Positions 5,823 through 28,647 of a stretch of DNA of 64,000 nt are shown piece by piece. Positions within the stretch are counted from its first letter, which is position 1. Each line of letters starts with the position of its first letter. The notes below the pieces were generated by a model, which searched no databases, was not told where the DNA came from, and was given only the letters and a program-made list of their open reading frames with translations. A program made the position numbers and the translations under genes. The stretch is taken from positions 480,001 to 544,000 of the forward strand of contig OY969934.1 of the NCBI GenBank assembly GCA_963704725.1, in the 5' to 3' direction. The stretch comes from an uncultured Actinomycetes bacterium (GTDB lineage Bacteria; Actinomycetota; UBA4738; HRBIN12).

Positions 5823-5876
5823 CGAACGGTCGCCGCCGCTCGTAGTCTGCGGGGCAAGGTCAAGAATCGTTCTCAT
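5819..5876 (+). promoter_or_regulatory. Sigma-A-type promoter plus Zur/Fur-type box upstream of znuA
   Basis: TTGACG (5819-5824), 18 nt, TAGTCT (5843-5848); then CAAGAATCGTTCTCA (5861-5875), similar to the actinobacterial 7-1-7 Zur box TGAAAATNATTTTCA. Confidence 0.65.
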
Positions 5877-5905
5877 TCTCGAAACCCGACGACCGGAGAC
5901 CTGTC

Positions 5906-6817
5906 ATGTCGAGGGTCCGCGCGATCGCGGCGATCCTCGCGGTGTTGGCCGTGGGGGCGTCGGCCTGCGATCGGTCCTCGGGCGCGTCCGACGGCGGGCT
6001 CACGGTCGTGGCGAGCTTCTACCCCCTCGCCGTGGCGGTGGAGCGCTCGGCGGGCGACCTCGTCACCGTCGTGAACCTCACCCCCGCGGGCGTCGAGCCC
6101 CACGATCTCGAGCTCGCCCCGGACGATCTCGAGGCGGTCGTCACCGCGGATCTCGTCGTCTACCTCGGCGGCGGATTCCAGCCCGCCGTCGAGGACGGGG
6201 TGCAACAGGCCGAGGGGGCGACCCTCGACGCGCTACAGGCCGTGGGCCCGCTCCGTTCGCCGCCGCCGGGAGCGGGGGAGGCCGAGCTCACGGCCGATCC
6301 GCACGTGTGGCTCGACCCGGCACGATACTCGCGGATCGTGGGGGCGGTTGCGAACGCCCTCGCCCGGCTCGACCCGGCGCACGCCGACGCGTTCCGCTCG
6401 AACGCCGAGGCGTTCCAGGGGGATCTCTCGTCGCTCGACGCGGAGTTCCACGACGGGCTGGCGACCTGCGCGCGCCGGATGATCGTCACGAGCCACGCGG
6501 CGTTCGGCTACCTGGCCGAGTCCGACGACCTGGAGCAGGTGCCGATCGCGGGGCTCTCGCCCGACGCCGAGCCCAGCGCGCAGCGGATCGCGGAGCTCCG
6601 GACGCTCGTGCAGGAGCAGGGGATCACCACGATCTTCACCGAGGACCTGGTCTCGCCGAAGGTCGCCGAGACGCTGGCCGACGAGGCCGGCGTCGAGACG
6701 GCGGTCCTGAACCCGCTCGAGGGGCTGACGCAGGAGCAGGTCGACGCCGGGGACGACTACCTTTCCATCATGCGCGGCAACCTGGAGATCCTGAGGACGG
6801 CCCTTGACTGCACCTGA
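5906..6817 (+). CDS. znuA: Zinc/metal ABC transporter substrate-binding lipoprotein
   Basis: Lipobox ASAC; VEPHDLEL, DPHVWLDP, SHAAFGYL, LNPLEG. Confidence 0.9.
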   Translation: MSRVRAIAAILAVLAVGASACDRSSGASDGGLTVVASFYPLAVAVERSAGDLVTVVNLTPAGVEPHDLELAPDDLEAVVTADLVVYLGGGFQPAVEDGVQQAEGATLDALQAVGPLRSPPPGAGEAELTADPHVWLDPARYSRIVGAVANALARLDPAHADAFRSNAEAFQGDLSSLDAEFHDGLATCARRMIVTSHAAFGYLAESDDLEQVPIAGLSPDAEPSAQRIAELRTLVQEQGITTIFTEDLVSPKVAETLADEAGVETAVLNPLEGLTQEQVDAGDDYLSIMRGNLEILRTALDCT

Positions 6818-7628
6818 GCGGCACGCCGCCGCACCCGACCTGTCTCCGGCGACGCCGGTGAGGCGAGCCCCGGCCTCGCTCGGCGACGTCCTGGTGCGCG
6901 CCGAGGGCGTCACCTTCGCGTTCGGGCGTGCGCGCGTCCTCGAGGGCGTCGACCTCACGGTGCGCGCCGGCGAGTTCGTCGCGCTCGTCGGGCCGAACGG
7001 CTCGGGCAAGTCGACCCTGCTCCGCCTGCTGCTCGGGTCGCTGACGCCGTCCGGGGGATCCGTCCAGCTGCTGGGCGAGACCCCCTCCAATCTCGCCGAT
7101 CGGGCCCGGATCGGATACGTGCCGCAGCGGCCCGTGCTCGACTCGGAGGTGCCGGCCACCGTCGAGGAGATCGTGGCCGCGGGGCGTCTGGCCCGGCGCG
7201 GGTGGTGGCGACCGCTCCGACGAGAGGATCGCGAGTTCGTGAGCCACGCCCTCGAGTCCGTCGGCCTCGGCGACCTGGCGCGCAAGCCGCTCAACGAGCT
7301 GTCGGGTGGACAGCAGCAGCGCGCGTTCATCGCACGGGCGTTCGCCGGCGAGCCCGATCTGCTGCTCCTCGACGAGCCGATCGCCGGCATCGACGCCGAG
7401 TCGCAACGCCGGTTCCGGGACTCGCTCACCCACCTCATCGCCGAGCACGGCGCCGGCGTCCTGCTCGTCTCGCACGAGCTTTCGGCGGTGGCCCCGGAGC
7501 TCGACCGCGTCATCGTGCTGAAGCGGCGCGTCCTGTTCGACGGGCCGCCGTCGGAGCTGGCCGCCTCGGGCGTGAGCCTGGGGATCCACCGCGACGACCT
7601 CCCGCTCTGGCTCGAGGGGCTGCGCTGA
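6804..7628 (+). CDS. znuC: Zinc/metal ABC transporter ATP-binding protein
   Basis: GPNGSGKST, IGYVPQR, LSGGQQQR, LLLDEP, VSHEL. Confidence 0.9.
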   Translation: MTAPERHAAAPDLSPATPVRRAPASLGDVLVRAEGVTFAFGRARVLEGVDLTVRAGEFVALVGPNGSGKSTLLRLLLGSLTPSGGSVQLLGETPSNLADRARIGYVPQRPVLDSEVPATVEEIVAAGRLARRGWWRPLRREDREFVSHALESVGLGDLARKPLNELSGGQQQRAFIARAFAGEPDLLLLDEPIAGIDAESQRRFRDSLTHLIAEHGAGVLLVSHELSAVAPELDRVIVLKRRVLFDGPPSELAASGVSLGIHRDDLPLWLEGLR

Positions 7629-8482: not shown

Positions 8483-8931
8483 GCGACGTCCACGCCGTCG
8501 TCGAGGAGCGCCTGCGCGCGGTCGGCCAGCGGTACACCGCCCAGCGCAGGGCGTTGATCGACGCGCTCCGGCGCGCGGGCAACCCTGTCCCGATCCCCGA
8601 CCTCGCGAACGCGCGTCGAGGGCTCCCGCAGAGCTCGGTCTACCGGAACCTCGCCCTGCTGGAGCAGGCCGGCGCCGTGCATCGCGTGCTGACGGGAGAG
8701 GAGTTCGCCCGGTACGAGCTCACCGAGGATCTCACCGAGCACCACCACCATCTCGTCTGCCGCAGCTGTGGAGCGGTCGAGGACGTCACGGTGACCTCGA
8801 GCTTCGAGCGTCAGGTGGCGCGAGCCGTCACGGAGATCGCCGACCGCACGGGGTTCTCGGCCGCCAGCCACCGGCTCGACCTGTTCGGGACGTGCCGGAG
8901 CTGTGTCGAGCGCCGTCAGGCCGTGAGGTAG
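8479..8931 (+). CDS. zur: Fur family transcriptional regulator, probably Zur
   Basis: YTAQRRAL, SSVYRNL, HHHHLVCRSCG, C-terminal CRSC; last gene of the znu operon. Confidence 0.82.
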   Translation: MSDVHAVVEERLRAVGQRYTAQRRALIDALRRAGNPVPIPDLANARRGLPQSSVYRNLALLEQAGAVHRVLTGEEFARYELTEDLTEHHHHLVCRSCGAVEDVTVTSSFERQVARAVTEIADRTGFSAASHRLDLFGTCRSCVERRQAVR

Positions 8932-9677
8932 GGCCGGTCCGGACGAGAGACGGAGGCGATCCCGCCGGCGTTCACGATGACCTCGCGGCCGATCGGGTAG
9001 ATCGTCCCGGTCACCTCCACCCACTCGTTGTCCTCGAACGCTCCCGGCGTGACGTTGACCACGCGGACCTGGGCGATCGTCGCGTCGGCCACGCAGCACG
9101 TCACGACGTACCGGGTGAGGAAGAACTCGTCCGCGGGCGTGTCGGCGTAGCGCGTGACGAACCCGACGAAGTCCACGGACTCGCCGGCGCGCTTGGCCAG
9201 GGCGCGCTCGCCGTCCGGCGACGTCTGCCCTGCGGCGACGTCCACGAGCGTGAGCTCGCCGCTCGCGATGTCCCCCGCCGAGGACGCGATCCCGGAGCCG
9301 GTGAACCCTGACCGCTTGTTGGCGGAGAACGAGCCCAGCGTGGCCGGCGGCAGCACCATGACCAGGAGGACGGGCACGACCATCGCTCCCATGATCAACA
9401 GCTCGTGCCGACGGATCGGCTCGGGCCGCCGGGCCCGGGCGGAGGCCAGCCGGCCGAGCGCGGCGGCCGACAGGATCACGGCCGCCACGGGCACCACCCA
9501 CTCCGTGCGGGTCGAGAGGTAGAACGCTCGGCGTCCCGAGAGCAGGAGGAACCAGAAGAGCGTCGCCCACGCGCCGAGGACGACGGCGCCCGCCACCCGA
9601 GCCGGGCTCCACACGCGGGGGAGCGCGGTCTCGGTGATGGGCCGGGGTGCGTCCCGGGCGACGACGGCGTCGGTCAT
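8916..9677 (-). CDS. TIGR03943/DUF1980 family putative permease subunit (YcgQ-like)
   Basis: Three N-terminal TMs; FVGFV, LTRYVVTCCVADA, WVEVTG, C-terminal PDRPYL. Confidence 0.85.
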   Translation of the reverse strand: MTDAVVARDAPRPITETALPRVWSPARVAGAVVLGAWATLFWFLLLSGRRAFYLSTRTEWVVPVAAVILSAAALGRLASARARRPEPIRRHELLIMGAMVVPVLLVMVLPPATLGSFSANKRSGFTGSGIASSAGDIASGELTLVDVAAGQTSPDGERALAKRAGESVDFVGFVTRYADTPADEFFLTRYVVTCCVADATIAQVRVVNVTPGAFEDNEWVEVTGTIYPIGREVIVNAGGIASVSRPDRPYLTA

Positions 9678-10678
9678 CCGAACAGCACCCCGATCCACAG
9701 CGTGCCGACGAGCGTGGTCGCGGTCACCCCGATGAGGACCGCGCGCACGAACCCACGGCGGAACGTCCCGCCGTACAGCGCCACCAGCTTCAGGTCGACC
9801 ATCGGTCCGAACACGAGGAACGCCAGCTGCGCGGCGGGGCCGAACTGCACGAACGACGCCGCAACGAACGCGTCCGACTCGGAGCACAGGGACAGCACGC
9901 CGGCGAGGGCCATCATCACGAGCAGCGACACGACCGGCACGCCGGCCACGCCGGTCAGGAGCGACGTCGGCAGGAACGTCTGGATCGCCGCGGCGACGGT
10001 CGCGCCGAGGATCAGGTAGCGGCCCATGAACAGGAAGTCGTTGCCGAGGTGGACGAAGAACCGCCGCCACCGGGCCTCGGGCCGGCCGAGCTCGGTCAGG
10101 TGCTCGTGTGCCTCCTCCGGGTTCGGCTTGAGGAGCTCGTCCTTCGTCCGGGTGCCCACCAGCCAGCCGACCGCGACCGCCACGAGGAACCCGAGCACGA
10201 AGCGTCCCCCGATCATCGTCCACTCGGTCGACCGCCCTCGGTACGCGAAGAACGTGGACGCCACGACGACCGGATTGAGCACCGGCGCGGCGAGCATGAA
10301 CGTCACCGCAGCCGACGGCATGAGCCCGCGCTGCGCCAGCCTCCGAGCCACCGGCACCGAGCCGCACTCGCAGATCGGGAAGGCCAGACCGGCCAGGGCG
10401 GCCGCCGGGAGCTGCAACGGACGGGGGAGCCGGCCGAGCCTCTCGAGCGTGCCGATCGGCACGAAGATCTCGACGAGCGATGCGGCCAGGGCGCCGAGCA
10501 TCACGAACGGCAGCGCCTGGATCAGCAGCGAGCCGAAGATGACGAGGTACGTTCGGACCCACTCGACCCGCTGCGGGTCGAGCAGCCGCAGGGCGACGGC
10601 GCCGAGGACGAGGAGCCCGGCGGCGAGCACGGCGCCGCGCGTCGAGACCGTTCGGGATCTGGGGGCGGCGACGGCCAT
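9674..10678 (-). CDS. DUF318 family permease (YcgR/ArsP-like)
   Basis: QALPFVMLG, FPICECGSVPVARRL, FMLAAPVLNP, SLCSESDAFVA, FGPMVDLK. Confidence 0.9.
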   Translation of the reverse strand: MAVAAPRSRTVSTRGAVLAAGLLVLGAVALRLLDPQRVEWVRTYLVIFGSLLIQALPFVMLGALAASLVEIFVPIGTLERLGRLPRPLQLPAAALAGLAFPICECGSVPVARRLAQRGLMPSAAVTFMLAAPVLNPVVVASTFFAYRGRSTEWTMIGGRFVLGFLVAVAVGWLVGTRTKDELLKPNPEEAHEHLTELGRPEARWRRFFVHLGNDFLFMGRYLILGATVAAAIQTFLPTSLLTGVAGVPVVSLLVMMALAGVLSLCSESDAFVAASFVQFGPAAQLAFLVFGPMVDLKLVALYGGTFRRGFVRAVLIGVTATTLVGTLWIGVLFG

Positions 10679-12006
10679 CAGCAGTACCTCGCGAACGAGA
10701 CGGCGAAGCCCTGGAACGCGTCCGCCATCATCTCCCGCCCGTCCTCGTCCGTCACGCCGAGCAGCGCGTCCACGGCGACCTGACCGGTGATCGCCGCCTC
10801 GGTCAGGACCCGCTGGTCGAGGAAGAGCCCTCCTGGCACCGTCGCCGCGACGGCGGGAGCGACGCCGGGCACGGCGTCCTCGGCCGCGGCGATCAGGCCC
10901 GTGTCCGGGACGGCGTCCGCGCGGCGTTCGGACGTTCCCGTTCCCGCCACCGCGACGAGCACGGAGCCGCCGATCGCCGCGCGGGCGGCGTCCACGATCC
11001 GCTCGGTCCGGCGGTCGAGCGCTCGCACGTCGCCGTCGAGCACCACGCCGAGGACGTCCGGGATCTCGTCGCCGATCCCCGGCGCCTCGAGCAGCGAGCG
11101 CGCCGCGCCGACGGCCCGCTCTCCGCGGGCCACGACGACGCGGTCGGTGTCGTGCTGCGCGTACCACGCACCGCCGATCAGGCCGCGGTCGAGGTCATCG
11201 GTGGCGACGAGCGAGACGATCGAGCGCTGACCGGTGGCGTCATCGAGGTCCTCGGCGAGCGTGGCGATCACGGGAACCGGCGCTCCCTCGCCGAACGCCG
11301 GAACCACCTGACCCGCGTCGTTGCGGACGAACGAGCCGGTCACCCCGTGTTGGTGCGGCAACCCGCCGGTGCCGATCGTCGCGAGCGTGGCCGTCGGGTC
11401 GAGGGGGAGCGACCCCGTCTCGCCCCTCAGCGTGCCGGCCCCGTCGCGGAGCAGCGATCGAAGGAACGGCCAGTCCTTCGGCGCGCCCTCGAGATCGATG
11501 GTGCCGACGCCCTTCCACGCCACGAGGAGGACGAGGCCCGGGGCTTCACCACTCGCGACGCCGTCGATCGCCGTGCCGGAACGCACGTCGGGGAAGGGGC
11601 GCTCGAAGCCGATCGCGTCGCTCGCGGTCGGGGCGATCCGGTCGAGGGTGACGCCACCCGGGACCGGTGCACCGGCCGCGACGCCCGCGCCGGCGAACAC
11701 GATCGGGACGCGAGTGTCCGCTGAGCCCCGAACGGCCGGCCACGGCGCCGGCAGGCCGGTCCCACCGGTCGCCGAGAACACCGGCACTCGGTTCGACACC
11801 GCGAGGACGTCGGGTGACCGGCCCTCGCGGAAGCCGGCGGCGATCTCCCGCTTCAGGGCTTCGGGCAGGGGACAGAAGGGCGTCCGGGCGACGCCCTCGG
11901 AGCCCGAGTCGCAGGATCTCCCGGCGCAGACGGCGTGCAGGACCCCGGCGGGGATGCCGACGACGGCGAGCACGAGCAGGAGGATGAGCAGGCGACGACC
12001 GGACAC
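10678..12006 (-). CDS. Exported/membrane-anchored, catalytically degenerate paralog of the permuted alkaline-phosphatase-family proteins
   Basis: Same motif order as its neighbours (RSPDV..VPIVFAGAGV..TLDRIAPT..LVLLVAW..WPFLRSL..ATIGTG..HGVTG), but the metal ligands and nucleophile are replaced. Confidence 0.75.
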   Translation of the reverse strand: MSGRRLLILLLVLAVVGIPAGVLHAVCAGRSCDSGSEGVARTPFCPLPEALKREIAAGFREGRSPDVLAVSNRVPVFSATGGTGLPAPWPAVRGSADTRVPIVFAGAGVAAGAPVPGGVTLDRIAPTASDAIGFERPFPDVRSGTAIDGVASGEAPGLVLLVAWKGVGTIDLEGAPKDWPFLRSLLRDGAGTLRGETGSLPLDPTATLATIGTGGLPHQHGVTGSFVRNDAGQVVPAFGEGAPVPVIATLAEDLDDATGQRSIVSLVATDDLDRGLIGGAWYAQHDTDRVVVARGERAVGAARSLLEAPGIGDEIPDVLGVVLDGDVRALDRRTERIVDAARAAIGGSVLVAVAGTGTSERRADAVPDTGLIAAAEDAVPGVAPAVAATVPGGLFLDQRVLTEAAITGQVAVDALLGVTDEDGREMMADAFQGFAVSFARYC

Positions 12007-12065
12007 GGATCTCCACGGTAACGCCGGGTCGCTGGGTTGTCGTTCTCGGTTCCGTGGTGTTTCGT

Positions 12066-13814
12066 ATGCCGCTCGTGACCCTCTCGCGGCGTGGTGTCGG
12101 ACTGCTCGCCGCCTTGGTCGTGGTCGCCGCCGCGTGCACGGGAGACGACGGCGGCTCGGCGGCGCCCGAACGATCGGCCCGGCCGTCCGCTCCGCCGGCC
12201 TCCGCGCCGTCCTCTCCGTCGGGCTCGGCCTCGGGGCAGAGCCCCGGAGCGACGCCGGCCGTCGCCACCGGCGACCTCGTCGACGTGGCGTGCTCGTTGC
12301 CGCACGAATGGCTCCTGCGGACCTGGAGGGGCGATCGCGCCGACCGCAGCGCCGAGCTGCAGTTCCTCCCCGACGAGCCGAACTTCGTCGGGTCGGGCCT
12401 CCCTCACGTGGGGCCGTGGCCGTACGCGCAGGACGTTCCGATGTTCTGGTACGGCCCGGGGCACATCGCCCCGGCCGGCGTCGTCGACCGTCCGGTCACC
12501 CTCGCGGGGATCGCCCCCACGGAGGCCGAGCTGCTCGGCTTCCCGTTCCGAACGCCCGACGGGACGCCGATGAGCGAGGCGCTCGCCGGCAACCCGGCGC
12601 CGCCGAAGCTGATCGTGACGATGGTGTGGGACGCCGGCGGCCGCAACGTGCTCGCGCGGTGGCCGAAAGAGTGGCCGTTCCTGAAGTCGCTGATCTCGGA
12701 GGGCGCCTGGTACGAGCACGCCACCGTCGGGACGTCGCCGACGAGCACGGCGCAGACGCACGCCACGATCGGGACCGGGCTGTTCCCCGACCATCACGGC
12801 ATCGTGGGGCACCGCCTGCGCATCGGCGGCCAGATCACGACGCCGTGGCAGCGCGGGCCGACCTACCTGATCGCGCCGACGCTCGCGGACCTGTACGACG
12901 AGGCCATGGGGAACGAACCGGTCGTCGGCGAGCTCGGAACCGTGAGCATCCACCTCGGCATGCTGGGGCACGGCTCGATGTGGGGAGGCGGGGACCAGGA
13001 CATCGCCGCGGTGCGCGAGGTGGTCGGCGCCGACACCCTCGGAGCCGAGGGGTTCGAGTGGAACCTCACGCCGAGCCTGCAGCCGTACTACCGGTTCCCC
13101 GACTACCTCAACGACGTCCCGGGGTTCGACCAGGACGTGCGCGACGTCGACGCCGCCGACGGGCGGATCGACGGCAGGTGGCGGACGAACGACATCGCGC
13201 AGCTGCTGTCGGGGTTCGACACGCCGGCGCGCATCCCGTACCAGACGCGGGCCCTCGAGGAGCTGATCACACGCGAAGGGTTCGGGCAGGACGACGTCCC
13301 GGACCTCCTGTTCGTGAACTACAAGATGATCGACTACATCAGCCATGTGTGGACGGTGAACAGCCCCGAGATGAAGGACGCCGTCGCGGACCAGGACCTG
13401 GCCCTGCAGGAGCTCGTGGGGTTCCTCAACCAGACCGTCGGCGAGGGTCAGTGGGCGCTCGTCCTCACGGCCGACCACGGCTCGATCCCCGACCCCGAGG
13501 TGAGCGGGGCGTTCCAGATCTCGGCCACCCCGATCGCGAACGGCATCAACGCGACGTTCGACACGGACGGCGATGACACGCGCATCGTGCAGGTCATCCA
13601 GCCGACGCAGATCTTCGTGAACACCGACGAGCTCGAGCAGAACGGGCACACGCTCGAGGAGCTGAGCTCCTGGATCATGGGCCTCACGAAGGCCGACACG
13701 GCCCAGCCCGGCGTCGTCGTCCCGCCCGACGAGGCCGGCGACCGGGTGTTCCAGGCTGCGTTCCCCTCCTCCCTGCTCGACGAGCTGCCGTGCCTGCCCG
13801 AGGCCCATCGGTGA
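12066..13814 (+). CDS. Alkaline phosphatase/NPP-superfamily lipoprotein (PafA-like, circularly permuted), copy 1
   Basis: Lipobox AAAC; PKLIVTMVWD, PTSTAQTHATIGTG, DLLFVNYKMIDYISH, LTADHG, N-terminally relocated PHVGPWPYAQDVPMFWYGPG..TLAGIAPT. Confidence 0.88.
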   Translation: MPLVTLSRRGVGLLAALVVVAAACTGDDGGSAAPERSARPSAPPASAPSSPSGSASGQSPGATPAVATGDLVDVACSLPHEWLLRTWRGDRADRSAELQFLPDEPNFVGSGLPHVGPWPYAQDVPMFWYGPGHIAPAGVVDRPVTLAGIAPTEAELLGFPFRTPDGTPMSEALAGNPAPPKLIVTMVWDAGGRNVLARWPKEWPFLKSLISEGAWYEHATVGTSPTSTAQTHATIGTGLFPDHHGIVGHRLRIGGQITTPWQRGPTYLIAPTLADLYDEAMGNEPVVGELGTVSIHLGMLGHGSMWGGGDQDIAAVREVVGADTLGAEGFEWNLTPSLQPYYRFPDYLNDVPGFDQDVRDVDAADGRIDGRWRTNDIAQLLSGFDTPARIPYQTRALEELITREGFGQDDVPDLLFVNYKMIDYISHVWTVNSPEMKDAVADQDLALQELVGFLNQTVGEGQWALVLTADHGSIPDPEVSGAFQISATPIANGINATFDTDGDDTRIVQVIQPTQIFVNTDELEQNGHTLEELSSWIMGLTKADTAQPGVVVPPDEAGDRVFQAAFPSSLLDELPCLPEAHR

Positions 13815-15520
13815 GGCCGCGGGGCCCCGCGCTCCTGCTGGCCGCGGCCCTCGTCGCGGCGGCCTGCACGTCGGGGGGCGATCGAGGCGCCGACGACGGC
13901 TCGAGCCCCACCTCCGCCCTTCCCGCCTCGGCGAGCCCGGTCCGGCCCTCCTCCACCACCCCCGCGGAGCCCGAGCCCGGCGCGCTCGAGCAGGCGGCGT
14001 GCGCGATGCCGCACCGCGAGCTCGTTCGCATCTGGCGCGGGACCGATCCGCAGCGCTCCGGCCAGATCGTGGTCGTGCCGCAGGAGCCGAACTTCCTCGG
14101 CTCGAACTTCCCGCACTCGGGCCCCTGGGACTACCTGCAGGACGTTCCGTTGCTCTGGTACGGGCCGGGCATCGTCCCGGCGCTCGGGTCCGTCGACCGG
14201 CCCGTGACGCTCGCCTCGGTCGCGCCGACCGAGGCCAAGCTGCTCGGCTTCGACTTCTCGGCCCCGGACGGCCACGCCCTTCCCGAGATCCCCGCCCCCG
14301 CGACGGCGCCGCCGCTGATCGTGACGTTCGTGTGGGACGCCGGCGGACGCAGCGTCCTCGACTCCTTTCCGCAGGACTGGCCGGTCCTGCGCTCGCTGAT
14401 CGACGGCGGGGTCTGGTACGAGCACGCCAGCGTGGGCTCGAGCCCCTCGATCACGCCGGCCACGCATGCGACGATCGGCACCGGCGCCTACCCCATGCAC
14501 ACCGGGCAGACGGACGCCGAGTTCCGCATCGGCCCGGACCTCGTGCGGGCCGGCCAGCTCGGCCCGGTGCTGTTGATGGAGCCCACGCTGGGGGATCTGT
14601 ACGACCGTGCGATGGGCAACGCGCCGCTCGTGGGGGATCTGGCCAGCGTGACCTGGCACCTCAACATGGCCAGCCACGGCTCGCTGTGGGGCGGCGGAGA
14701 CCGGGACATCGCGGTGCTCCGCACGCCCAGCATCTCCGGCGGGAACGAGGGCGCCGAGGGCAACCAGTGGAACCTCCAGGGCAAGAACCGGCCCTACTAC
14801 GAGTTCCCCGAGTACGTGAACGACCTGCCGCCGCTGTCGGCATACACGGACGCCGTCGACCGGGCCGACGGTGCGATCGACGGCATGTGGCGCGACAACT
14901 CGATCCAGCAGTACGAGGACGGGTGGGCCACGCCCGCCCGGATCCCGTACCAGGAGCGGATGATCGAGGAGGTCGTGGCGCGCGAGGGCTTCGGCGACGA
15001 CGACGTGCCCGACCTCCTGTTCATCAACTCGAAGGCGATCGACCACGCGAGCCACATCTGGAGCGTGAACAGCCCCGAGATGCAGGACATGCTGTCGTGG
15101 CAGGACGAGGCGCTCGGGCAGTTCATCCGGTTCCTCGACGACGAGGTGGGAGCGGGACGGTGGGTCCTGCTCCTCACGGCCGACCACGGCGCGCAGTTCG
15201 ACCCGCAGGTCTCGGGCGCGTTCCAGGTCACCCCGACGCACCTCGAGCAGGACCTGAACGAGGCCTTCCCGTCGTCGACGGACCAGTCGGTGTTCCAAGC
15301 CGTGCGCACGAGCCAGATCTACGTGAACGAGACGACGATGGAGGCGAGCGGGTACACGTTCGAGGAGATCTCGCGGTTCGTCCTGGACTACACGAAGGCC
15401 CAGGGCGCGACCGACCCCGCCACGGTCCCCGCCGACCAGCGCGACGACCGGGTCTTCTCCGCGGCGTTCCCCATCGACCTGCTTCCCACGCTGACCTGCC
15501 TGCCCGAGGCTCGGGAGTGA
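13811..15520 (+). CDS. Alkaline phosphatase/NPP-superfamily lipoprotein (PafA-like, circularly permuted), copy 2
   Basis: GTGA overlap with copy 1; lipobox AAAC; RSGQI..PHSGPWDYLQDVPLLWYG, IVTFVWD, PSITPATHATIGTG, AIDHASH, TADHG. Confidence 0.88.
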   Translation: MRPRGPALLLAAALVAAACTSGGDRGADDGSSPTSALPASASPVRPSSTTPAEPEPGALEQAACAMPHRELVRIWRGTDPQRSGQIVVVPQEPNFLGSNFPHSGPWDYLQDVPLLWYGPGIVPALGSVDRPVTLASVAPTEAKLLGFDFSAPDGHALPEIPAPATAPPLIVTFVWDAGGRSVLDSFPQDWPVLRSLIDGGVWYEHASVGSSPSITPATHATIGTGAYPMHTGQTDAEFRIGPDLVRAGQLGPVLLMEPTLGDLYDRAMGNAPLVGDLASVTWHLNMASHGSLWGGGDRDIAVLRTPSISGGNEGAEGNQWNLQGKNRPYYEFPEYVNDLPPLSAYTDAVDRADGAIDGMWRDNSIQQYEDGWATPARIPYQERMIEEVVAREGFGDDDVPDLLFINSKAIDHASHIWSVNSPEMQDMLSWQDEALGQFIRFLDDEVGAGRWVLLLTADHGAQFDPQVSGAFQVTPTHLEQDLNEAFPSSTDQSVFQAVRTSQIYVNETTMEASGYTFEEISRFVLDYTKAQGATDPATVPADQRDDRVFSAAFPIDLLPTLTCLPEARE

Positions 15521-17211
15521 GGCGTCGCCGTTCCGCGGCGGCGCTGCTCGCGGTGGCCGTCGTCGCCGCGGCGTGCACCGGCGACTCGCCGGGTCCCGGC
15601 CCGTCGCGGACGCCCGGCGCGCCGACGAGCCCTCCGCCCCCGACCAGCGACCGGGAGCTGGCGCGGACCGCGTGCCGCAACGTCGACCACGACGTCCTCC
15701 TGCGGACCTGGCACGGCGTCAGCCTGGACCGCAGCGGCGACGTCCAGATCATCCCCGTGGAGCCGAACTTCGTGAACGGCGGGCTGACCCACGCCACGCC
15801 GTTCGACTACACGCAGGACGTCCCGCTCTTCCTGTACGGGCCCGGCTACGTGAGGTCCGGCGTCTACGACGAGCCGATCACGCTGGCCGACCTCGCGCCG
15901 ACGACGGCTGCGCTGCTGAAGTACCGGTTCGACGCGCCGGACGGGAGCCCCCAAACCCAGGCGCTCCTCCCGGCGGCCGACCGCCCGCTCCCCGCGCTCG
16001 TCGTGACGGTCATCTGGGATTCGGGCGGAGACGATGTTCTTGATCGATGGCCCCACAGCTGGCCCTACCTTCGCTCGCTCCGCCAGCGGGGAGCGTGGTT
16101 CACCAACGTCACCGTGGGCTCGTCCCCGTCGAACACGCCGACCGGCCACGCGACGATCGGCACGGGGGCGTTCCCGATGCGCAACGGGTTCGTCGACGAG
16201 TACCTGCGGGTGAACGGCCGCATCCAGAAGCCGAACGCGAACGGTCCGGCGTTCCTGAACGTCCCCACTCTGGCCGACCTCTACGACGCGGCGAGGGACA
16301 ACGCGCCGAAGGTCGGGGCCATCGCGACGCTCGCGGCCCACATCATGATGATGGGCCACGGCTCGGAGTGGGGCGACGGCGACCGGGACCTCGCCGTGAC
16401 GCGGGAGAAGGAGTTCGCGGCCACGGCCGGCGCCGAGAGCCTGACCTGGAACCTGACGAGCGCGATGGCACCCTTCTACGACCTGCCCGGCTACGTGAAC
16501 GACCTCCCTCCGCTCTCCGACTACGTCGACGCGATCGATCGCCTGGACGGCCGGCTCGACGGCAAGTGGCGCACGAACGACATCGCCCAGCTCTCCAACG
16601 GGTTCGACACCCCGGCACGCACGCCGTTCCAGGAGACGCTGATCGAGGCCGTGATCCAGCGCGAGGGGTTCGGCGCCGACGACGTTCCCGACCTGCTGTA
16701 CCTCAACTACAAGGCCATCGACACGATCGGTCACCTGTTCAGCGCGGACGGGGTCGAGATGTCGGACGCGGTGAAGGTGCAGGACGAGACGCTGCGCCGG
16801 CTGATCGACTTCCTCGATCAGACCGTCGGCCGGGACCGATGGGTCATGGTGCTCACCGCCGACCACGGGACCCAGCGCGACCCCACCGCCTCCGGCGCGT
16901 TCATGATCGACATCCACAAGCTGGAGGACGGCCTCAACCGCACGTTCGACGGCGATGGCGACGGGGTCCCGGCGATCCAGAAGGTCCGCCCCACCGAGGT
17001 CTGGATCGACACCGACGAGCTCGCCGAGAACGGGTTCACCCTCGAGCAGGTCTCGCGCTGGTTCCTCGGCCTCACGCAGCAGGAGACCTACAAGAACCAG
17101 CACGTCCCGGCGGCCGGGCACGAGGACGATCCGGTCTTCGCCGCCGCGTTCCCGTCGTCTATCCTGACGGCGCTCCCGTGCCTTCCCGAGGCCCGCGGGA
17201 GCTCGTCGTAG
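15517..17211 (+). CDS. Alkaline phosphatase/NPP-superfamily lipoprotein (PafA-like, circularly permuted), copy 3
   Basis: GTGA overlap with copy 2; lipobox AAAC; RSGDVQII..THATPFDYTQDVPLFLYG..TLADLAPT, VVTVIWD, PSNTPTGHATIGTG, AIDTIGH, TADHG. Confidence 0.88.
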   Translation: MRRRRSAAALLAVAVVAAACTGDSPGPGPSRTPGAPTSPPPPTSDRELARTACRNVDHDVLLRTWHGVSLDRSGDVQIIPVEPNFVNGGLTHATPFDYTQDVPLFLYGPGYVRSGVYDEPITLADLAPTTAALLKYRFDAPDGSPQTQALLPAADRPLPALVVTVIWDSGGDDVLDRWPHSWPYLRSLRQRGAWFTNVTVGSSPSNTPTGHATIGTGAFPMRNGFVDEYLRVNGRIQKPNANGPAFLNVPTLADLYDAARDNAPKVGAIATLAAHIMMMGHGSEWGDGDRDLAVTREKEFAATAGAESLTWNLTSAMAPFYDLPGYVNDLPPLSDYVDAIDRLDGRLDGKWRTNDIAQLSNGFDTPARTPFQETLIEAVIQREGFGADDVPDLLYLNYKAIDTIGHLFSADGVEMSDAVKVQDETLRRLIDFLDQTVGRDRWVMVLTADHGTQRDPTASGAFMIDIHKLEDGLNRTFDGDGDGVPAIQKVRPTEVWIDTDELAENGFTLEQVSRWFLGLTQQETYKNQHVPAAGHEDDPVFAAAFPSSILTALPCLPEARGSSS

Positions 17212-17228: not shown

Positions 17229-20200
17229 ATGGCGCTCACCAAGGACCGTCCCGACCAGGCCGTCCGCGTCTCGGAGGCCGAGGCCCGGGGGTTCCTGGGA
17301 CGGCCGGTCGTCTTGGCCGTGGCCATCGCGGTGGTGCTCCTGGCGTTCGGCTGGACCTTCCTGCGCGACCCCTCGGTCAGCGCCCCCACGCGCGACCCGG
17401 CCTGGTACACGTGGCGATCGAACCTGATGATGAACGACGACCCCGGCCTCATCGCGGGCGACTGGGGGCCGTTCTCGATGTTCGGCGGGGGCTATCGCGT
17501 CTCGGTCCCGCTCTACGGCTCGATCCTTCAGCGGGTGGCCGGGATCGACCTGTACACGTTCAGCGCGTTCATGATGGTGGGGGTCCCCGTGCTCACCGGG
17601 CTGGCTCTCGGTGCGTTCGCGTGGCGTCGCTCCCGCGATCCGTTGCTGTTCCTGCTCGTCATGCTCGCGACGGCGGCCCTGTTCATGACGACGCCCTACG
17701 TCGGCTACCTCGACAACATCACGATCCTGTTCTTCCTGTCGATGATCCTGGCGTTCTTCGAACCCGGGCGGACGTCGTGGGGCGCGAGGACCGCGCTCTT
17801 CCTGCTCGGCATCGTCGCGGCGTACACCCATCCCACGACGTGCGTCATCTTCGGCGCGTCGCTGATGGCCGTGTTCGGCCTCCGCGTCCTGACGAGCCGG
17901 TTCCACCTCGGCCCCGCCCTGAAGGAGCTCGGGCCGTCGCTGATGTCGGTCGGGTTCGGGATGATCCTCGGGCTCGGCTCGTGGCTCGCGTCGCCGTGGG
18001 GCGTGAAGGGGTCGCTCGCCGACGCGGCCCTTCCTCCGCCGTACACGCGAGAGGTCTTCATGAAGCGCCTCGACGGCTGGGTGAGCTCACTGCAACCGGC
18101 GATCGTCGTGCCGCTCGTGGTGCTGGCGATCGGCTGGACGATCTGGCGGGCCCGGCGGGATCACGAGCGATCCGACGGGTTCGGGACGATCTCGACGATG
18201 CTGCTCCTGCCCTTCCTCGGAACGCTCGGGTGGATCGCGGGGGCGACCTATCCCTACTACCGGTTCATGAACGCCACCCTCGCGCTCTTCCCGCTCGCGG
18301 GGCTCGGCGCGTACGTCGCGATCAAGTGGCTGTGGCGACGCGACGGCCTGGCGAAGGTCGCAGGCCTCGTCGCCTCGCTGGTGATCGTCGGGTCGTTCGG
18401 CTTCATCTGGGTCAACGGGCGGGACGCGGCGCAGTGGGCCAACCCCGACAACCAGTGGATCGACCAGCCCACCCGAACCGCGCTCTCGGCGGCGCGCGCG
18501 GTCGTCGAGCACTCGCCCCCGGACTCGCCGGTCGTCTTCGTCGTGAACTTCGGCGACACCTACCAGTCCTACGGATGGGCGAAGACCTTCACGAACGTCT
18601 CGCGGACCGGCCTGCCCGGCGAGGACGTGAAGCGCTCCATGACCTACTTCGGCGCCGTCGACGACCTGCTCGCGAACCGGCCGACCGCGTTGACGGATCC
18701 GACCTACAACAAGATGTCGCGGGGCTTCCTCCGCGAGCTGACCGCCCTCCGCGAGGAGTACACGGGCCCGCCGGTCGTCCTCCTCGTCCGCCAGTTCAAC
18801 CAGGGCACCGTGAACGAGGACCTGCTCGACTCGGGCGATCCGACCCTGATGAAGATCGGCGACGACATCGCCGTCGTCACGGGGCCGGAGCTCGCGACGC
18901 CGTCACCGGCCGCCCTGGAGGACGCTCGCGCGTCCGAGGCCGCCGTGGCCGCCTTCTACGCGGACCACCCGGGGATCTTCGGGAACCTCGGGCACACGCT
19001 GTTGGTGGTCCTCGCCCTGGTCCTGCTCCTGGTCGTCCCCGGCCTGCTCGCGGCGGACTACTTCGAGCTGAACGACACGTGGCTCCGGGTCTCGCTCGTG
19101 CCGGGGATCTCGATCGCGCTCACCGTGCTGGCGGGAGTGATCGTCGTCGGCGTGCACCGGGCGCCTTTCGGGACCGGCGACGGGTGGGCCTCGCTCGGTC
19201 TGGCCACCGTGTTCGCCGGAGGTCTCCGCGTGGGCGCTCGGCCGATCCAGCGGACCATGGCGGCCGTCGGCGACTTCTTCAACCGGATGTTCTCCACGTT
19301 CTCCAACGCGGACTTCGCGGCGCTGATGGGCGTGCAGTTCCTGGTCATGGCGGCGGACGGCCTGATCCGGGGGTCGATCGCCAAGTCGATCGCGTTCGGA
19401 GGCCAGGAGGGTTTCGACATCACGACGGTGCCGTCAGCCGACTACCTCCTGAAGGTGGTGCTGGCGCTCTACGTGCCGTACACGTTCCTGTCGCCGTTCA
19501 TCGGCGTCGTCATCGACCGGTTCGAGCGGCGGCGCGTGCTGGCCGTCTCGAGCATCGTCACCGCCGCGACCACGGCGGTCCTCGCCGTCGCGATCATGCT
19601 CCCCCTCGGCGACGACACGTCCGAGGGCAAGGTGGCGGCGACCGCCGGCCTGGTCCTGGCGATGCTGGTCATGCAGGCCTGCGTGCGGATCATGCTCGCG
19701 GTCAAGTCGGCCGCCCTGCCCGGCGTCGTGCACGGGAAGGACCTGATGAACGGCAACGGTCTGTCCCAGGCCGGCGGCGCGCTCTTCCAGGTGCTCGGGG
19801 CGGGGGTGGCGTTCGGGGCCGGCGGGGCGCTGCCGTCCTGGGCGGTCGTGATCGTCGGCGGCGGGACGCTCGTGGTGTCGGCGTTCGTGGCGATGCGGAT
19901 CCAGCGCATGGAGATCACGAAGCACGTGACGTCGTTCGCCGAGGAGGCCAAGCGCGTCGTCAAGGACATCGCGAACGGCGTCCGGGAGGTGGCGCAGCGC
20001 CCGGCCGCGGCGCTCGGGCTCACCGCGTTCCAGATGCTCCGGTACCAGTTCTGGGGGTTCGCCCTCGGCGTGTTCGCCCTGTACGCGCGCTCCCTCGTCG
20101 AGAGCGGCGACGTCGACTCGATCGCGCTCGCCATCGTGGGCGGAGGCGGGTTCGTGGGCGGCGCGCTCGGCATGGTGCTCGCGCAGCGGTGGAAGGACCG

Positions 20201-20609
20201 CGTGCCTCCCGTCCGGCTGCTCCTCGGGTCGATGGCGCTCCTCGGCGGGAGCGCGCTCGTCCTCGGCTTCTGGGTGAGCCTGGCCGGCTTCACCCTCCTG
20301 CTGTTCTTCGGGTTCTTCGCGTTCTTCCTCGGCAAGATCTCCGCCGACACGATCCTCCAGCAGGCCATCCGAGACGATTTCCGGGGCCGCGCGTTCGCGC
20401 TGTTCGACATCGCGTACAACCTCGGGTTCATCGTCCCGGCGCTCATCCTCGTGCTCGTGTGGAACGACGACCGGGCGGGCGTCACGCTGATCGCTTCCGG
20501 CGCGGTGTTTCTCGCGCTGACGGCGGGCATCGCCCGCTGGGCTCGGGCCATCCGAGCGGAGCTCGCCCCGCAGGACGACCTCGCCGACGACGCCCCGGAG
20601 GCGCGGTGA
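17229..20609 (+). CDS. Large polytopic membrane protein (1126 aa): GT-C-like glycosyltransferase region fused to a C-terminal MFS transporter
   Basis: After TM1, an external loop with RDPAWY; about 11 TMs including AYTHPTT; a soluble domain; then from about 19280 a 12-TM MFS with PYTFLSPFIGVVIDRFERRRVL and DDFRGRAFALFD. Confidence 0.72.
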   Translation: MALTKDRPDQAVRVSEAEARGFLGRPVVLAVAIAVVLLAFGWTFLRDPSVSAPTRDPAWYTWRSNLMMNDDPGLIAGDWGPFSMFGGGYRVSVPLYGSILQRVAGIDLYTFSAFMMVGVPVLTGLALGAFAWRRSRDPLLFLLVMLATAALFMTTPYVGYLDNITILFFLSMILAFFEPGRTSWGARTALFLLGIVAAYTHPTTCVIFGASLMAVFGLRVLTSRFHLGPALKELGPSLMSVGFGMILGLGSWLASPWGVKGSLADAALPPPYTREVFMKRLDGWVSSLQPAIVVPLVVLAIGWTIWRARRDHERSDGFGTISTMLLLPFLGTLGWIAGATYPYYRFMNATLALFPLAGLGAYVAIKWLWRRDGLAKVAGLVASLVIVGSFGFIWVNGRDAAQWANPDNQWIDQPTRTALSAARAVVEHSPPDSPVVFVVNFGDTYQSYGWAKTFTNVSRTGLPGEDVKRSMTYFGAVDDLLANRPTALTDPTYNKMSRGFLRELTALREEYTGPPVVLLVRQFNQGTVNEDLLDSGDPTLMKIGDDIAVVTGPELATPSPAALEDARASEAAVAAFYADHPGIFGNLGHTLLVVLALVLLLVVPGLLAADYFELNDTWLRVSLVPGISIALTVLAGVIVVGVHRAPFGTGDGWASLGLATVFAGGLRVGARPIQRTMAAVGDFFNRMFSTFSNADFAALMGVQFLVMAADGLIRGSIAKSIAFGGQEGFDITTVPSADYLLKVVLALYVPYTFLSPFIGVVIDRFERRRVLAVSSIVTAATTAVLAVAIMLPLGDDTSEGKVAATAGLVLAMLVMQACVRIMLAVKSAALPGVVHGKDLMNGNGLSQAGGALFQVLGAGVAFGAGGALPSWAVVIVGGGTLVVSAFVAMRIQRMEITKHVTSFAEEAKRVVKDIANGVREVAQRPAAALGLTAFQMLRYQFWGFALGVFALYARSLVESGDVDSIALAIVGGGGFVGGALGMVLAQRWKDRVPPVRLLLGSMALLGGSALVLGFWVSLAGFTLLLFFGFFAFFLGKISADTILQQAIRDDFRGRAFALFDIAYNLGFIVPALILVLVWNDDRAGVTLIASGAVFLALTAGIARWARAIRAELAPQDDLADDAPEAR

Positions 20610-24505: not shown

Positions 24506-26533
24506 CTAGCCGGACGCGAGCACGATCGTCCACATCGTGGCGTAGCTGGCGGTCGATGCCGCCGTGGCCGTGAGCCCGCCGTACGAGCCGGCGGGCACGA
24601 GGCCGTCGCTGTCGACGACGAGCCCCTTCACGGTGCCACTCCCGGTCTGCGTGCCGCTCGCACGGACCGTCACCCCGCCGGGCGGGGTCAGGAGCGTCGC
24701 GGTCGAGTCCTTGTGCGTCCAGTAGGAGACCGCCCAGCTCGTGGCCGAGGAGACCGCCGCGAACGGCGTGACGTGCTGGGACCGCCCGGGCGCGTCGATC
24801 GCGCTCGCGAACGAGGCGACGGGATCGATCCCGGAGGTTCCGCGGTAGGCGACGAGCACGAGGTTCCCCTTCGAGATCGAAGAGACCGAGATCGTCACGG
24901 CGCCGCCGACGTCTGCGGGGCCGGCCACCTTCCGCCAGACGCGCGTCGTGGCGCCCGACATCGTCAGCGTGTCGAGCGGGGCCCACCCGGTCACGCCGGC
25001 CGGCTCCGAGACGGTGGCCGTGGTGTTCGTCGCGAAGAACAGGAGCAGGCCGTCACCCGGCGCGACGGACGCCGGCACCGTGACGCTGTGAGTGACCGCG
25101 TTCGCGTTGGACATCGCCTGCCCGACGAACGAGATCTGCCCGCCGCCCTCCGCGACCGTGACGCCCCGCGTGTCCACGCCGGTCGCGCCGTCGTCGTCGG
25201 TCACGGTGAGCGTGACGGCGTAGGAGCCGGCGGCCGCGTACGTGTGCGACGCCGTGATCCCGACGTCCGTCCCGCCGTCGCCGAAGTCCCACGCGTACGA
25301 GGCGATCGCCCCATCGGGATCGAAGGAGTCGGATCCGTCCACCGTGCAGGAGAGCTCGGCGCATCCGACGCCGATGACCGCGGTCGGGGCCCGGTTCGGG
25401 GGCGGCTCGTTCGACAGGCCGACGACCCGCTCGAGGGGCACGAGCTTGAAGTTCTGGTTCCCGCTGTTCCCCGGGAGCGTGTTGGTGTTGTCCTGGCACA
25501 CGAACAGGCCGTTCGGGAACGCCGGCCCCATGTCTGCGGCCAGCGCGTCGATGCCGTCGGTGCGCCCGCACCCATCGACGACCGCCCCGGTCACCACGCG
25601 GAAGCTCCGGATGAAGGCGTTGGCGCCCTGGCGCTCGTAGACGAGGTAGGAGTTGAGCGTGTCGGACGCGGCCTGCGACGACGCGAGCAGGTACCCCGTC
25701 CCTCCGGGCTGGTAGACGATCGTGAGCCCTTCGGCGTCGGGACGGATGTGCCCGCCGGCCGCGATCGTGCGGTCAACCGCCACCCGCGACCCGGGGTTCG
25801 TCGGATCGGTCGGCTCGGCCCCGTACTTCCAGATCGCGACGTCCTCCTCGCTGATGTAGAGGTCCCCGAGCTCGTCGTCGGCCACGCAGCCCTCGACCTC
25901 GCGTCCCACGTCCCACTGGCGGACGACGGTCCCCTCGATCAGGCCGTCGGCGTCGGCATCGGTCAGTGCGAGCTGGGCGACCCGGCCGCTGCGGGCGTTC
26001 ACGAACACGTAGAAGCTCCCGGAGGCGGGGCTCCGGTACAGGCAGATCCCCTCGCCGCCGGTGAACGGGACCGCGATGCTCCCGGTCCCGGAGTCCGTGA
26101 CGTTCGCGAGGTGCCTGGTGGCCGGATCGATCCCGTAGACGCGGATCCCGGCCCGGAAGGTCACGGCGACGTCGATCGCCCCGGTCGCAGTGACGATCCC
26201 GCTGCGGACGTCGACGTTGCCGAAGAACCCACCCGTGATCCGCTGGATGAGCCCGCCGGCCAGATCGTAGACCTCGAGCGCTCCGCCCTTGTCGTTGCCG
26301 ATCACCACGGAGCGCGACGGATCGGAGGGATCCCGCCAGATCGCGGGGTCGTCCGCCGCGTCGCCCGAGTGCGAGACCGGAGGTGTCTCGACCGTGGCCA
26401 CCGCGTCGCCCACCGGCTGGTCGGCGGCCGCCGCGGGTGTCCACACCGCCGACACGGCGGCGACGAGGACGGCGGCCACGACGGCCGTGCGGCGTCGGAC
26501 CGGTGGCGCGATCGACCGATCTGGTGTCCTCAC
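24506..26533 (-). CDS. Secreted beta-propeller phytase with a PKD domain and a C-terminal beta-rich domain
   Basis: Signal peptide; DAADDPAIW, GNDKGG, EGCVADD, EEDVAIWKYGAEP, DAEGL, TDGI, QNFKLV; PKD motif SFDPDG..YAWDFGDG..VTLTVTDD. Confidence 0.9.
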   Translation of the reverse strand: MRTPDRSIAPPVRRRTAVVAAVLVAAVSAVWTPAAAADQPVGDAVATVETPPVSHSGDAADDPAIWRDPSDPSRSVVIGNDKGGALEVYDLAGGLIQRITGGFFGNVDVRSGIVTATGAIDVAVTFRAGIRVYGIDPATRHLANVTDSGTGSIAVPFTGGEGICLYRSPASGSFYVFVNARSGRVAQLALTDADADGLIEGTVVRQWDVGREVEGCVADDELGDLYISEEDVAIWKYGAEPTDPTNPGSRVAVDRTIAAGGHIRPDAEGLTIVYQPGGTGYLLASSQAASDTLNSYLVYERQGANAFIRSFRVVTGAVVDGCGRTDGIDALAADMGPAFPNGLFVCQDNTNTLPGNSGNQNFKLVPLERVVGLSNEPPPNRAPTAVIGVGCAELSCTVDGSDSFDPDGAIASYAWDFGDGGTDVGITASHTYAAAGSYAVTLTVTDDDGATGVDTRGVTVAEGGGQISFVGQAMSNANAVTHSVTVPASVAPGDGLLLFFATNTTATVSEPAGVTGWAPLDTLTMSGATTRVWRKVAGPADVGGAVTISVSSISKGNLVLVAYRGTSGIDPVASFASAIDAPGRSQHVTPFAAVSSATSWAVSYWTHKDSTATLLTPPGGVTVRASGTQTGSGTVKGLVVDSDGLVPAGSYGGLTATAASTASYATMWTIVLASG

Positions 26534-28590: not shown

Positions 28591-28647
28591 CGGCGCGGAG
28601 GGTAGCACCCGTGCCCGCTCGGTCCGCGGAGGCGTACCGTGGTGAGG

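Follow-up and report, generated by a model that had tools for sequence, protein, structure and literature searches.

In the alkaline phosphatase superfamily, PafA serves as a model enzyme for high-throughput enzymology and as a marker gene of phosphorus cycling. A literature search on circular permutation in this superfamily, in PafA, in PhoK and in the nucleotide pyrophosphatases (NPPs) turned up no description of a permuted member. The main text of a 2026 CIRPIN survey of circular permutations (PMC13552848), whose supplements may list such a pair, makes no mention of a phosphatase, phosphodiesterase, sulfatase, PafA or metalloenzyme, and the main texts of three papers on the distribution of PafA (PMC8812569, PMC12594817, PMC12704751) hold no occurrence of 'permut'. 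Here we describe three tandem genes, copies 1-3, from a 64,000-nucleotide stretch of an uncultured Actinomycetes bacterium (contig OY969934.1, positions 480,001 to 544,000; hereinafter the window), whose products belong to a real, widespread, permuted PafA/PhoK-like family that is apparently undescribed in print.

We used copy 3 as the reference for residue numbers and a profile built from 53 diverse permuted members (alignment A1; the family profile) for the more sensitive comparisons. The array and the parts of copy 3 are laid out as follows:

12054-13814, forward strand: copy 1, permuted alkaline-phosphatase-superfamily protein and putative lipoprotein, 586 amino acids from GTG 12054 (alternative start ATG 12066)
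13790-15520, forward strand: copy 2, permuted alkaline-phosphatase-superfamily protein and putative lipoprotein, 576 amino acids from GTG 13790 (alternative start GTG 13811)
15517-17211, forward strand: copy 3, permuted alkaline-phosphatase-superfamily protein and putative lipoprotein, 564 amino acids from GTG 15517
15517-15576, forward strand: signal peptide of copy 3, with a lipobox-like Ala-Ala-Ala-Cys (Cys20) at its end and a Pro-rich linker after it, read from the translation
15694-15960, forward strand: copy 3 residues 60-148, equivalent to the C-terminal block of PafA (RSGD strand, His92, DLAPT helix), placed by phmmer and the family profile
15961-15984, forward strand: copy 3 residues 149-156, the short stretch linking the former C-terminus to the former N-terminus, placed by the alignments (predicted local distance difference test, pLDDT, ~98)
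15985-17076, forward strand: copy 3 residues 157-520, the canonical N-terminal and middle part, placed by profile positions 147-498 on PafA 16-414
17077-17211, forward strand: copy 3 residues 521-564 and the stop codon, a new C-terminal tail with the conserved Cys555

Residues 157-520 hold the Asp168 strand, the Thr207 nucleophile, His211, the Asp402/His406 and Asp449/His450 pairs, and the α-β subdomain, after which all three copies end in a conserved tail carrying a cysteine. The window has a G+C content of ~72%, and the genes meet in GTGA start/stop overlaps at 13811-13814 (copies 1/2, if GTG 13811 is used) and 15517-15520 (copies 2/3), which points to translational coupling. Pairwise identity among the copies is 48-51%. 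Each translation opens with a basic N-terminus, a hydrophobic stretch, Ala-Ala-Ala-Cys and then a Pro/Ser/Ala-rich linker; the lipobox cysteine is also present in the consensus of a 12-sequence homologue alignment. From the look of these N-termini, copies 1-3 are putative lipoproteins of the actinobacterial type.

Searches with both copy 3 and the family profile recovered PafA in pieces whose order is swapped. With copy 3 as query against the PDB sequences, phmmer returned PafA 5tj3 as the best match (E 1.1e-20) in three stretches in swapped order: residues 60-148 on 440-531 (independent E-value 4.4e-6), 157-226 on 16-87, and 368-467 on 256-366. The family profile matched the same protein at E 6.4e-67 in two stretches, again swapped, with positions 147-498 on PafA 16-414 (165.6 bits, independent E-value 1.3e-47) and positions 44-143 on 436-534 (59.8 bits, independent E-value 1.5e-15), and a gap of only 3 positions between the two. 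PhoK/SPAP (3q3q/5xwi) was likewise matched by the profile in two stretches (E 2.1e-47), and copy 3 aligned on PhoK in phmmer with residues 84-136 on 482-534 and residues 130-454 on 13-350. No PDB sequence was collinear with the family profile. As further comparators of canonical order we took, from named plasmid records, the annotated pafA of Persicobacter and 'alkaline phosphatase family' genes of Alisedimentitalea and Hymenobacter; the profile matched all three of these plasmid-borne relatives in swapped order. When the Alisedimentitalea protein was doubled, a single alignment ran across the junction (profile positions 46-498 on 467-1009, 195 bits, 2e-61), i.e., from residue 467 through the end of the protein into residue 442 of the second copy, a pattern classically taken as the mark of a circular permutation. 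When the search was reversed, the canonical proteins, now used as queries, hit all 53 members, and the order was swapped in 44/52, 52/53 and 50/50 of the cases with at least two stretches; in the cases that were not swapped, the N-terminal block had gone undetected. Motif patterns run on 57 full-length representatives, since superseded by the alignments, were both matched in 25, each of which has the DxAPT-type motif ahead of ADHG.

The domain models see only part of this arrangement. PF01663 (Phosphodiest; cut-off 23 bits) scores copies 1-3 at 99.8, 77.4 and 87.5 bits (E 3.1e-28, with residues 191-559 only, 2e-21 and 1.7e-24, respectively), with matches that begin only at residues 163-191. 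Since PF01663 sees nothing before the join and scores from the PafA model fall far short of its cut-off, the metal-ligand block goes unannotated.

An earlier note on this DNA, working from motifs rather than a computed alignment, had proposed a circular permutation of a PafA-type enzyme in three tandem copies at 12066-17211, and that proposal is now supported by computed alignments. The three forward-strand open reading frames (ORFs) are there, with the quoted motifs in their translations; the normally C-terminal block does come first, after the lipoprotein linker, and is joined directly to the usual N-terminal strand (~8 residues in copy 3, 3 positions in the profile); and the last zinc-ligand histidine, His92, precedes the first aspartate, Asp168. 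The two swapped segments that the note expected of a PafA search appeared with phmmer and with the profile alike, neither of which gave a single collinear alignment to PafA or NPP, and we found no described family with the same motif order. The chain was also said to end after a 'lid domain'; it does end ~110 residues after ADHG, at about positions 414-436 of the PafA chain, although 'lid domain' is the note's own label. Two homologous segments in swapped order, together covering the domain, are the sequence mark of a permutant and are present here, and at the level of sequence alignment we regard copies 1-3 as a confirmed natural circular permutant of a PafA/PhoK-like alkaline-phosphatase-superfamily enzyme.

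A tandem array invites a trivial explanation, namely that canonical-order genes were cut at the wrong places, so that each apparent gene combines the tail of one with the head of the next. The copies do lie head-to-tail with 4-nucleotide overlaps, and in such an array a C-terminal block would precede the next N-terminal strand. However, each of the three ORFs has its own putative signal peptide and lipobox before the N-terminal block and its own stop codon after the α-β subdomain, the forward strand has no phosphatase gene upstream of copy 1, and the gene after copy 3 is of another kind. Likewise, among 76 related loci retained from a search with the 12-sequence alignment, almost all of them in metagenome-assembled genomes (MAGs) of uncultured Actinomycetota, 31 have both flanks, and these carry one copy with the same architecture in 15 cases, two in 6 and three in 10. 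Moreover, a query of 171 residues that runs across the join, from His92 to Thr207, matched collinearly in 40 genomes of an even 301-genome sample of the window's phylum, and the one chain is modelled with confidence. Given the stops, signal peptides, single-copy loci and junction-spanning matches, we rejected the mis-segmented array, which has next to no chance of being correct.

An AlphaFold2 model of copy 3 built with the 53-sequence alignment has a mean pLDDT of 92.4 and a predicted template modelling score of 0.90. The relocated N-terminal block and the join reach pLDDT 96-98, and confidence is low only in the signal peptide and linker (helix at 5-18; pLDDT <50 at residues 21-31). The model has the alkaline-phosphatase-like α/β fold: Foldseek against the PDB placed PafA 5tj3 first (E 3.4e-11), followed by PhoK/SPAP (E 3.2e-08), with phosphonoacetate hydrolase and NPPs among its 22 matches at E <= 0.001. 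Using the phmmer and profile alignments to assign catalytic positions to PafA residues, we located the nucleophile T207 and the six metal ligands H92, D168, D402, H406, D449 and H450. Copies 1-3 retain all of these positions and H211, each of which is kept in no fewer than 50 of the 53 family members. They are also intact in all 147 sequences that an orthologue tree, built from the 76 related loci, assigned to three groups (5 further sequences fell outside the groups; those with <80% coverage or with stops or X had been dropped beforehand). Two extra residues near the site, K399 and H275, are near-invariant and, within the orthologue groups, invariant. With the full ligand set of a two-metal, Thr-nucleophile site retained, copies 1-3 are predicted to be catalytically competent.

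This conservation bears on the idea that copies 1-3 are non-catalytic binding proteins, for which the locus itself offers a precedent. The earlier note counted three copies, which are indeed present, but missed two further permuted genes in this genome, a single 3.45-Mb contig:

10678-12006, reverse strand: fourth paralogue, 442 amino acids, same permuted order, predicted catalytically dead, divergent from copy 1
C1:2578546-2580039: fifth permuted copy, 36% identical to copy 3

The fourth (dead) paralogue shares 31% identity with copy 1 across 306 residues (E 3.9e-23), and its residues 48-137 match positions 458-541 of the PafA profile and residues 175-234 match PF01663 17-74, the latter at 16.5 bits, below the 23-bit cut-off. 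It has lost all the catalytic residues, and none of its 35 orthologues keeps any of seven catalytic positions; they share instead four conserved cysteines, three near the N-terminus and one C-terminal, and the protein may be a metal-handling or scaffolding pseudoenzyme. In addition to this dead neighbor, the replacement of PafA second-shell residues in copies 1-3 would fit a binding role for them too. Against it stand the eight positions invariant in 147 orthologues, as opposed to 0/35 in the dead paralogue, as well as the near-invariant K399 and H275. We accordingly rejected a pseudoenzyme role for copies 1-3, which is very improbable. Instead of a lipobox, the fifth copy has a membrane segment and a twin-arginine-like motif ahead of the permuted domain. 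The same genome also has two canonical-order genes with full-profile PF01663 matches, and neither matches the PafA-type NCBIfam models.

The new chain ends carry a further conserved feature. In copy 3, Cys53 lies seven residues before the relocated block and Cys555 nine residues before the C-terminus. Across the 53 members, both are present in 33 and neither in 17, with Cys53 alone in 3 and Cys555 alone in none; several close relatives have lost both together, and both are kept in the three orthologue groups. Based on this co-variation, we infer a putative Cys53-Cys555 disulfide that would staple the new termini.

As for the closeness to PafA, the NCBIfam equivalog model NF042991, with a cut-off of 650 bits, gives copies 1-3 only 95, 81.5 and 103 bits. 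We also compared residues N100, K162 and R164, those mutated in PDB 5too according to the entry title, using literature numbering (chain index + 11, derived from the alignment and checked on T79, N100, K162 and R164). Across copies 1, 2 and 3, in that order, the N100-equivalent site (site 228) reads His, Ala and Glu and the R164-equivalent site Ser, Thr and Ala; K162 falls in a PafA-specific insertion that is absent from the family profile and has no counterpart in copies 1-3. The label 'PafA-type' thus stands as far as relatedness to PafA/PhoK goes and fails as a family assignment: by model score (81-103 bits against the 650-bit cut-off) and by these replaced residues, copies 1-3 are not PafA proper. 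Elsewhere in the family, 21 of the 53 members keep Asn at the N100 site and 12 keep Arg at the R164 site, 11 of the latter being among the 21. Only 2 of the 21 Asn-keeping members have the C-terminal cysteine, as against 31 of the 32 without Asn. Since these two kinds of permuted proteins exist, the active-site change seen in the window must have come after the permutation.

The replacements are specific to each copy. In the copy 1 group (n=48), site 228 is His and site 274 Ile in 48/48; in the copy 2 group (n=41), site 228 is Ala in 37/41 and site 274 Trp in 41/41; and in the copy 3 group (n=58), site 228 is Glu in 52/58 and site 274 Ala in 48/58. Because residue differences are fixed per paralogue among the 147 orthologues, the tree groups indicate that copies 1-3 are probably three old, non-redundant paralogues with different pockets rather than recent duplicates, and these might act on different substrates.

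The survey of distribution that the earlier note had called for revealed a large family in uncultured Actinomycetota. A word-indexed search gave 2430 clusters (90% identity) at E <= 0.001 among 8000 scored candidates. The best 120 of these 2430 are 66-100% identical and bear the names 'alkaline phosphatase family protein', 'Type I phosphodiesterase/nucleotide pyrophosphatase' or 'hypothetical protein', or none at all; an Atlas search of copy 3 also returned generic names only. An exhaustive search of representatives at 50% identity found 3640 at E <= 0.001, 1766 at E <= 1e-10 and 183 at E <= 1e-30, and the 150 matches listed were all collinear with the permuted query. With one genome taken per species, confirmation was obtained for 559 of 590 candidate stretches. 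Distant permuted members were named from one Bacteroidota MAG and one Candidatus Sericytochromatia MAG. Matches to the join-spanning query, up to 9 per genome, fell in families of the window's phylum coded f1 (15/16), f2, f4 and f5, all of the same order, and f6 (19/20), with one weak match in f15. In the same 301-genome sample the PafA model matched 37 genomes, none over its 650-bit cut-off; leaving aside eight matching genomes flagged as unpublished, the counts are 32/293 for the join query and 29/293 for the PafA model. The permuted family is thus abundant in MAGs of uncultured soil and wetland-type Actinomycetota.

Taken together, we put a probability of roughly 85% on copies 1-3 being extracytoplasmic, lipid-anchored, two-zinc phosphoryl-transfer hydrolases that are circularly permuted and nearest to PafA and PhoK/SPAP, a reading drawn from sequence and a structural model. 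In these proteins the canonical C-terminal segment (RSGD strand, last metal-binding His, DLAPT helix) has moved to the front and is joined via ~8 residues to the canonical first strand with the first Asp ligand, and the chain now ends after the α-β subdomain following ADHG. The permuted fold would rebuild the same Zn2 site, with its last ligand His92 supplied by the N-terminal block, and Thr207, by the chemistry of PafA, PhoK and NPP, would attack a phosphate ester held between two zinc ions. Their products would arise at the cell surface, whether in phosphate scavenging or by action on a phosphorylated envelope component from the co-operonic GT-C/MFS protein described below. Four observations weigh against this proposal or parts of it. 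The sequential Foldseek TM-score of the copy 3 model against PafA is only 0.47/0.51, which is expected when a sequential aligner meets a permutant and is no proof of one. Because N100, K162 and R164 are not kept in copies 1-3, monoesterase activity cannot be assumed. The deep nodes that separate the three paralogue groups are poorly supported (0.17-0.59). Finally, a fused or duplicated intermediate was sought among proteins of 988-2820 amino acids and none was found at E <= 0.001 in 8000 scored candidates, which is weak evidence.

The gene neighborhood of the array is as follows:

5906-6817, forward strand: znuA
6804-7628, forward strand: ABC ATPase
~8500-8931, forward strand: Fur-family regulator, with one further ORF between it and the ABC ATPase
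8916-9677, reverse strand: TIGR03943/DUF1980 protein
9674-10678, reverse strand: ArsP_1-type permease, forming with the preceding gene a permease pair downstream of the dead paralogue
17229-20609, forward strand: membrane protein of 1126 amino acids, a GT-C/MFS (major facilitator superfamily) fusion, starting 17 nucleotides after copy 3
24506-26533, reverse strand: secreted β-propeller phytase (PF02333, E 1.4e-76) that also has a PKD domain; distance to the array 7 kb
26665-28608, reverse strand: 647-amino-acid protein with an unusual combination of a cupredoxin-like domain, a right-handed β-helix region and a PLDc_N domain

The dead paralogue is the first gene of a reverse-strand operon with the ArsP_1-type permease and the TIGR03943/DUF1980 protein, and is separated from copy 1 by ~50 nucleotides. 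It and the permease lie upstream of the array in 29 of 41 related loci with enough upstream flank. Of the 55 loci in which the flank downstream of the array reaches 2.5 kb or more, 42 have the GT-C/MFS gene there. Its product combines a GT-C-fold glycosyltransferase-like domain (residues 1-~724) with an MFS transporter (~740-1070; MFS_1 E 2.3e-17). The N-terminal 724 residues have no Pfam match, and in the AlphaFold2 model (pLDDT 81.5) their top 23 Foldseek matches are all GT-C enzymes (STT3/AglB/PglB, AftA, ArnT, ALG9/12; TM 0.35-0.52); an Atlas lead to DUF6541 agrees weakly with this assignment. The first loop of the GT-C part bears an invariant Arg-Asp-Pro-Ala-Trp-Tyr motif. Loci with shorter flanks include arrays of four and five copies before the GT-C/MFS gene (L050, L051, L044, L030), and others carry one; array copy number is evolutionarily labile.

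One proposal for the function of copies 1-3 is that they are surface phosphatases (mono- and/or diesterases) that scavenge phosphate from external organic phosphorus, linked to their neighbors only by the supply of zinc. The nearest relatives, PafA and PhoK, are phosphate scavengers, the copies bear a putative lipoprotein export signal, and the secreted phytase gene is only 7 kb away. Further, the adjoining znuA/ABC/Fur-family operon and the putative metal permease pair fit enzymes that need two zinc ions, and the number of junction-spanning matches per genome is as in nutrient-scavenging families. However, no Pho-type regulator or pst genes are present among the annotated ORFs, which cover part of the window, the phosphate-binding residues of PafA are replaced, and the scavenging proposal leaves unexplained the co-operonic link to the GT-C/MFS gene, with its 17-nucleotide gap and its recurrence across loci. 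We give scavenging a little less than an even chance. The phytase, as a second phosphorus-release gene in the neighborhood, is an observation in its own right.

That co-operonic link is accommodated if copies 1-3 instead act on the cell envelope with the GT-C/MFS protein, where they would hydrolyse or transfer, on the outer side of the membrane, a phosphate-linked group carried by a polyprenyl-phosphate-linked donor, a lipoglycan or a teichoic-acid-like polymer. The order of copies followed by the GT-C/MFS fusion is conserved in the 42 of 55 loci, the neighbor's N-terminal part folds like STT3/PglB, AftA and ArnT, and three paralogues with distinct conserved pocket residues fit a multi-step pathway, as does the loss of the PafA phosphate-binding residues the envelope role itself. 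GT-C enzymes such as STT3/PglB, AftA and ArnT use polyprenyl-phosphate-linked donors; and LtaS and EptA, both of the alkaline-phosphatase superfamily, act on envelope lipids, LtaS working with an MFS flippase. Nevertheless, the two metal sites are complete, as they are in PafA and NPP, which are hydrolases; the closest enzymes in sequence and fold are soluble scavengers; and 7 of the 31 both-flank loci have neither neighbor, gene neighborhood alone being weak evidence. We consider an envelope role less likely than not.

A broader and more speculative extension, which we consider doubtful, would make the permuted phosphatases not scavengers but the catalytic arm of a conserved but so far unrecognised four-part actinobacterial cell-surface system. 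Its parts would be the GT-C/MFS flippase-like fusion, 1-5 permuted enzymes acting on a phosphate-linked envelope glycoconjugate, the dead paralogue with the ArsP/TIGR03943 pair, and the zinc-uptake operon with its Fur-family regulator; the dead paralogue, with its conserved cysteine cluster, and the ArsP/TIGR03943 pair could conceivably, for example, deliver metal. If such a system existed, the permutation with disulfide-stapled termini would have been fixed because it suited a membrane-proximal role.

Two non-coding elements were also noted. In the divergent region between the dead paralogue and copy 1 (12007-12066), and in the matching regions of loci L012-L087, motifs are conserved across many MAGs: a TTGTCGTTC-like element, a GTGTTTCGTATG-like element ~20 nucleotides downstream of it, and a CCACGCTAC-like element adjoining the start of the dead paralogue. 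These could be promoter or regulator sites, and we recognised no known box among them. Upstream of znuA, a perfect AGAAT-N7-ATTCT inverted repeat at 5863-5879 is the sole match in the window (12 of 100 shuffles give at least 1) and could be the operator of the Fur-family regulator; the repeat is not found in the 50-nucleotide divergent region before copy 1. A zinc-regulator box, taken as a 15-nucleotide consensus of the actinobacterial Zur box, had no match at <=3 mismatches.

The permuted family offers a ready-made experiment: the same catalytic site built from a rearranged chain allows chain order to be set against folding, stability and catalysis. Surveys that count PafA/PhoK-type genes with PF01663 or PafA models may under-score or mis-sort it. 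The locus, conserved in many Actinomycetota MAGs, brings together specialised paralogues (three here) predicted to be active, one that is dead, genes for metal uptake and the GT-C/MFS fusion, and so hints at surface biology in scarcely cultured lineages.

Among described proteins, PafA (5tj3/5too; NF042991) is the best match to copies 1-3 in sequence and fold, sharing the Thr nucleophile, the Asp/His ligands, the ADHG motif, the α-β subdomain after ADHG and the RSGD...His...DxAPT block. Unlike PafA, copies 1-3 have the chain cut near PafA positions 414-436 and the old ends joined by a few residues, and they carry K399, H275, a Cys pair at the new ends and a putative lipoprotein anchor. PhoK/SPAP of Sphingomonas (3q3q, 5xwi), the second-best match by profile and fold, has the same superfamily core and ligand set in canonical rather than permuted order. 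The NPPs (PF01663; e.g., Xanthomonas NPP 2gsn) are likewise a two-metal, Thr-nucleophile family and, like copies 1-3, lack the Lys/Arg pair of PafA; by comparison, copies 1-3 have the permuted order and a PafA-like inserted domain, and PF01663 misses their His-bearing block. The closest parallels for the rearrangement itself are other natural enzyme permutants, among them GTPases, NlpC/P60 proteins and DNA methyltransferases, in which, at least as outlined in reports on them, the same kind of change has moved the termini and reordered the catalytic residues within an unchanged fold.

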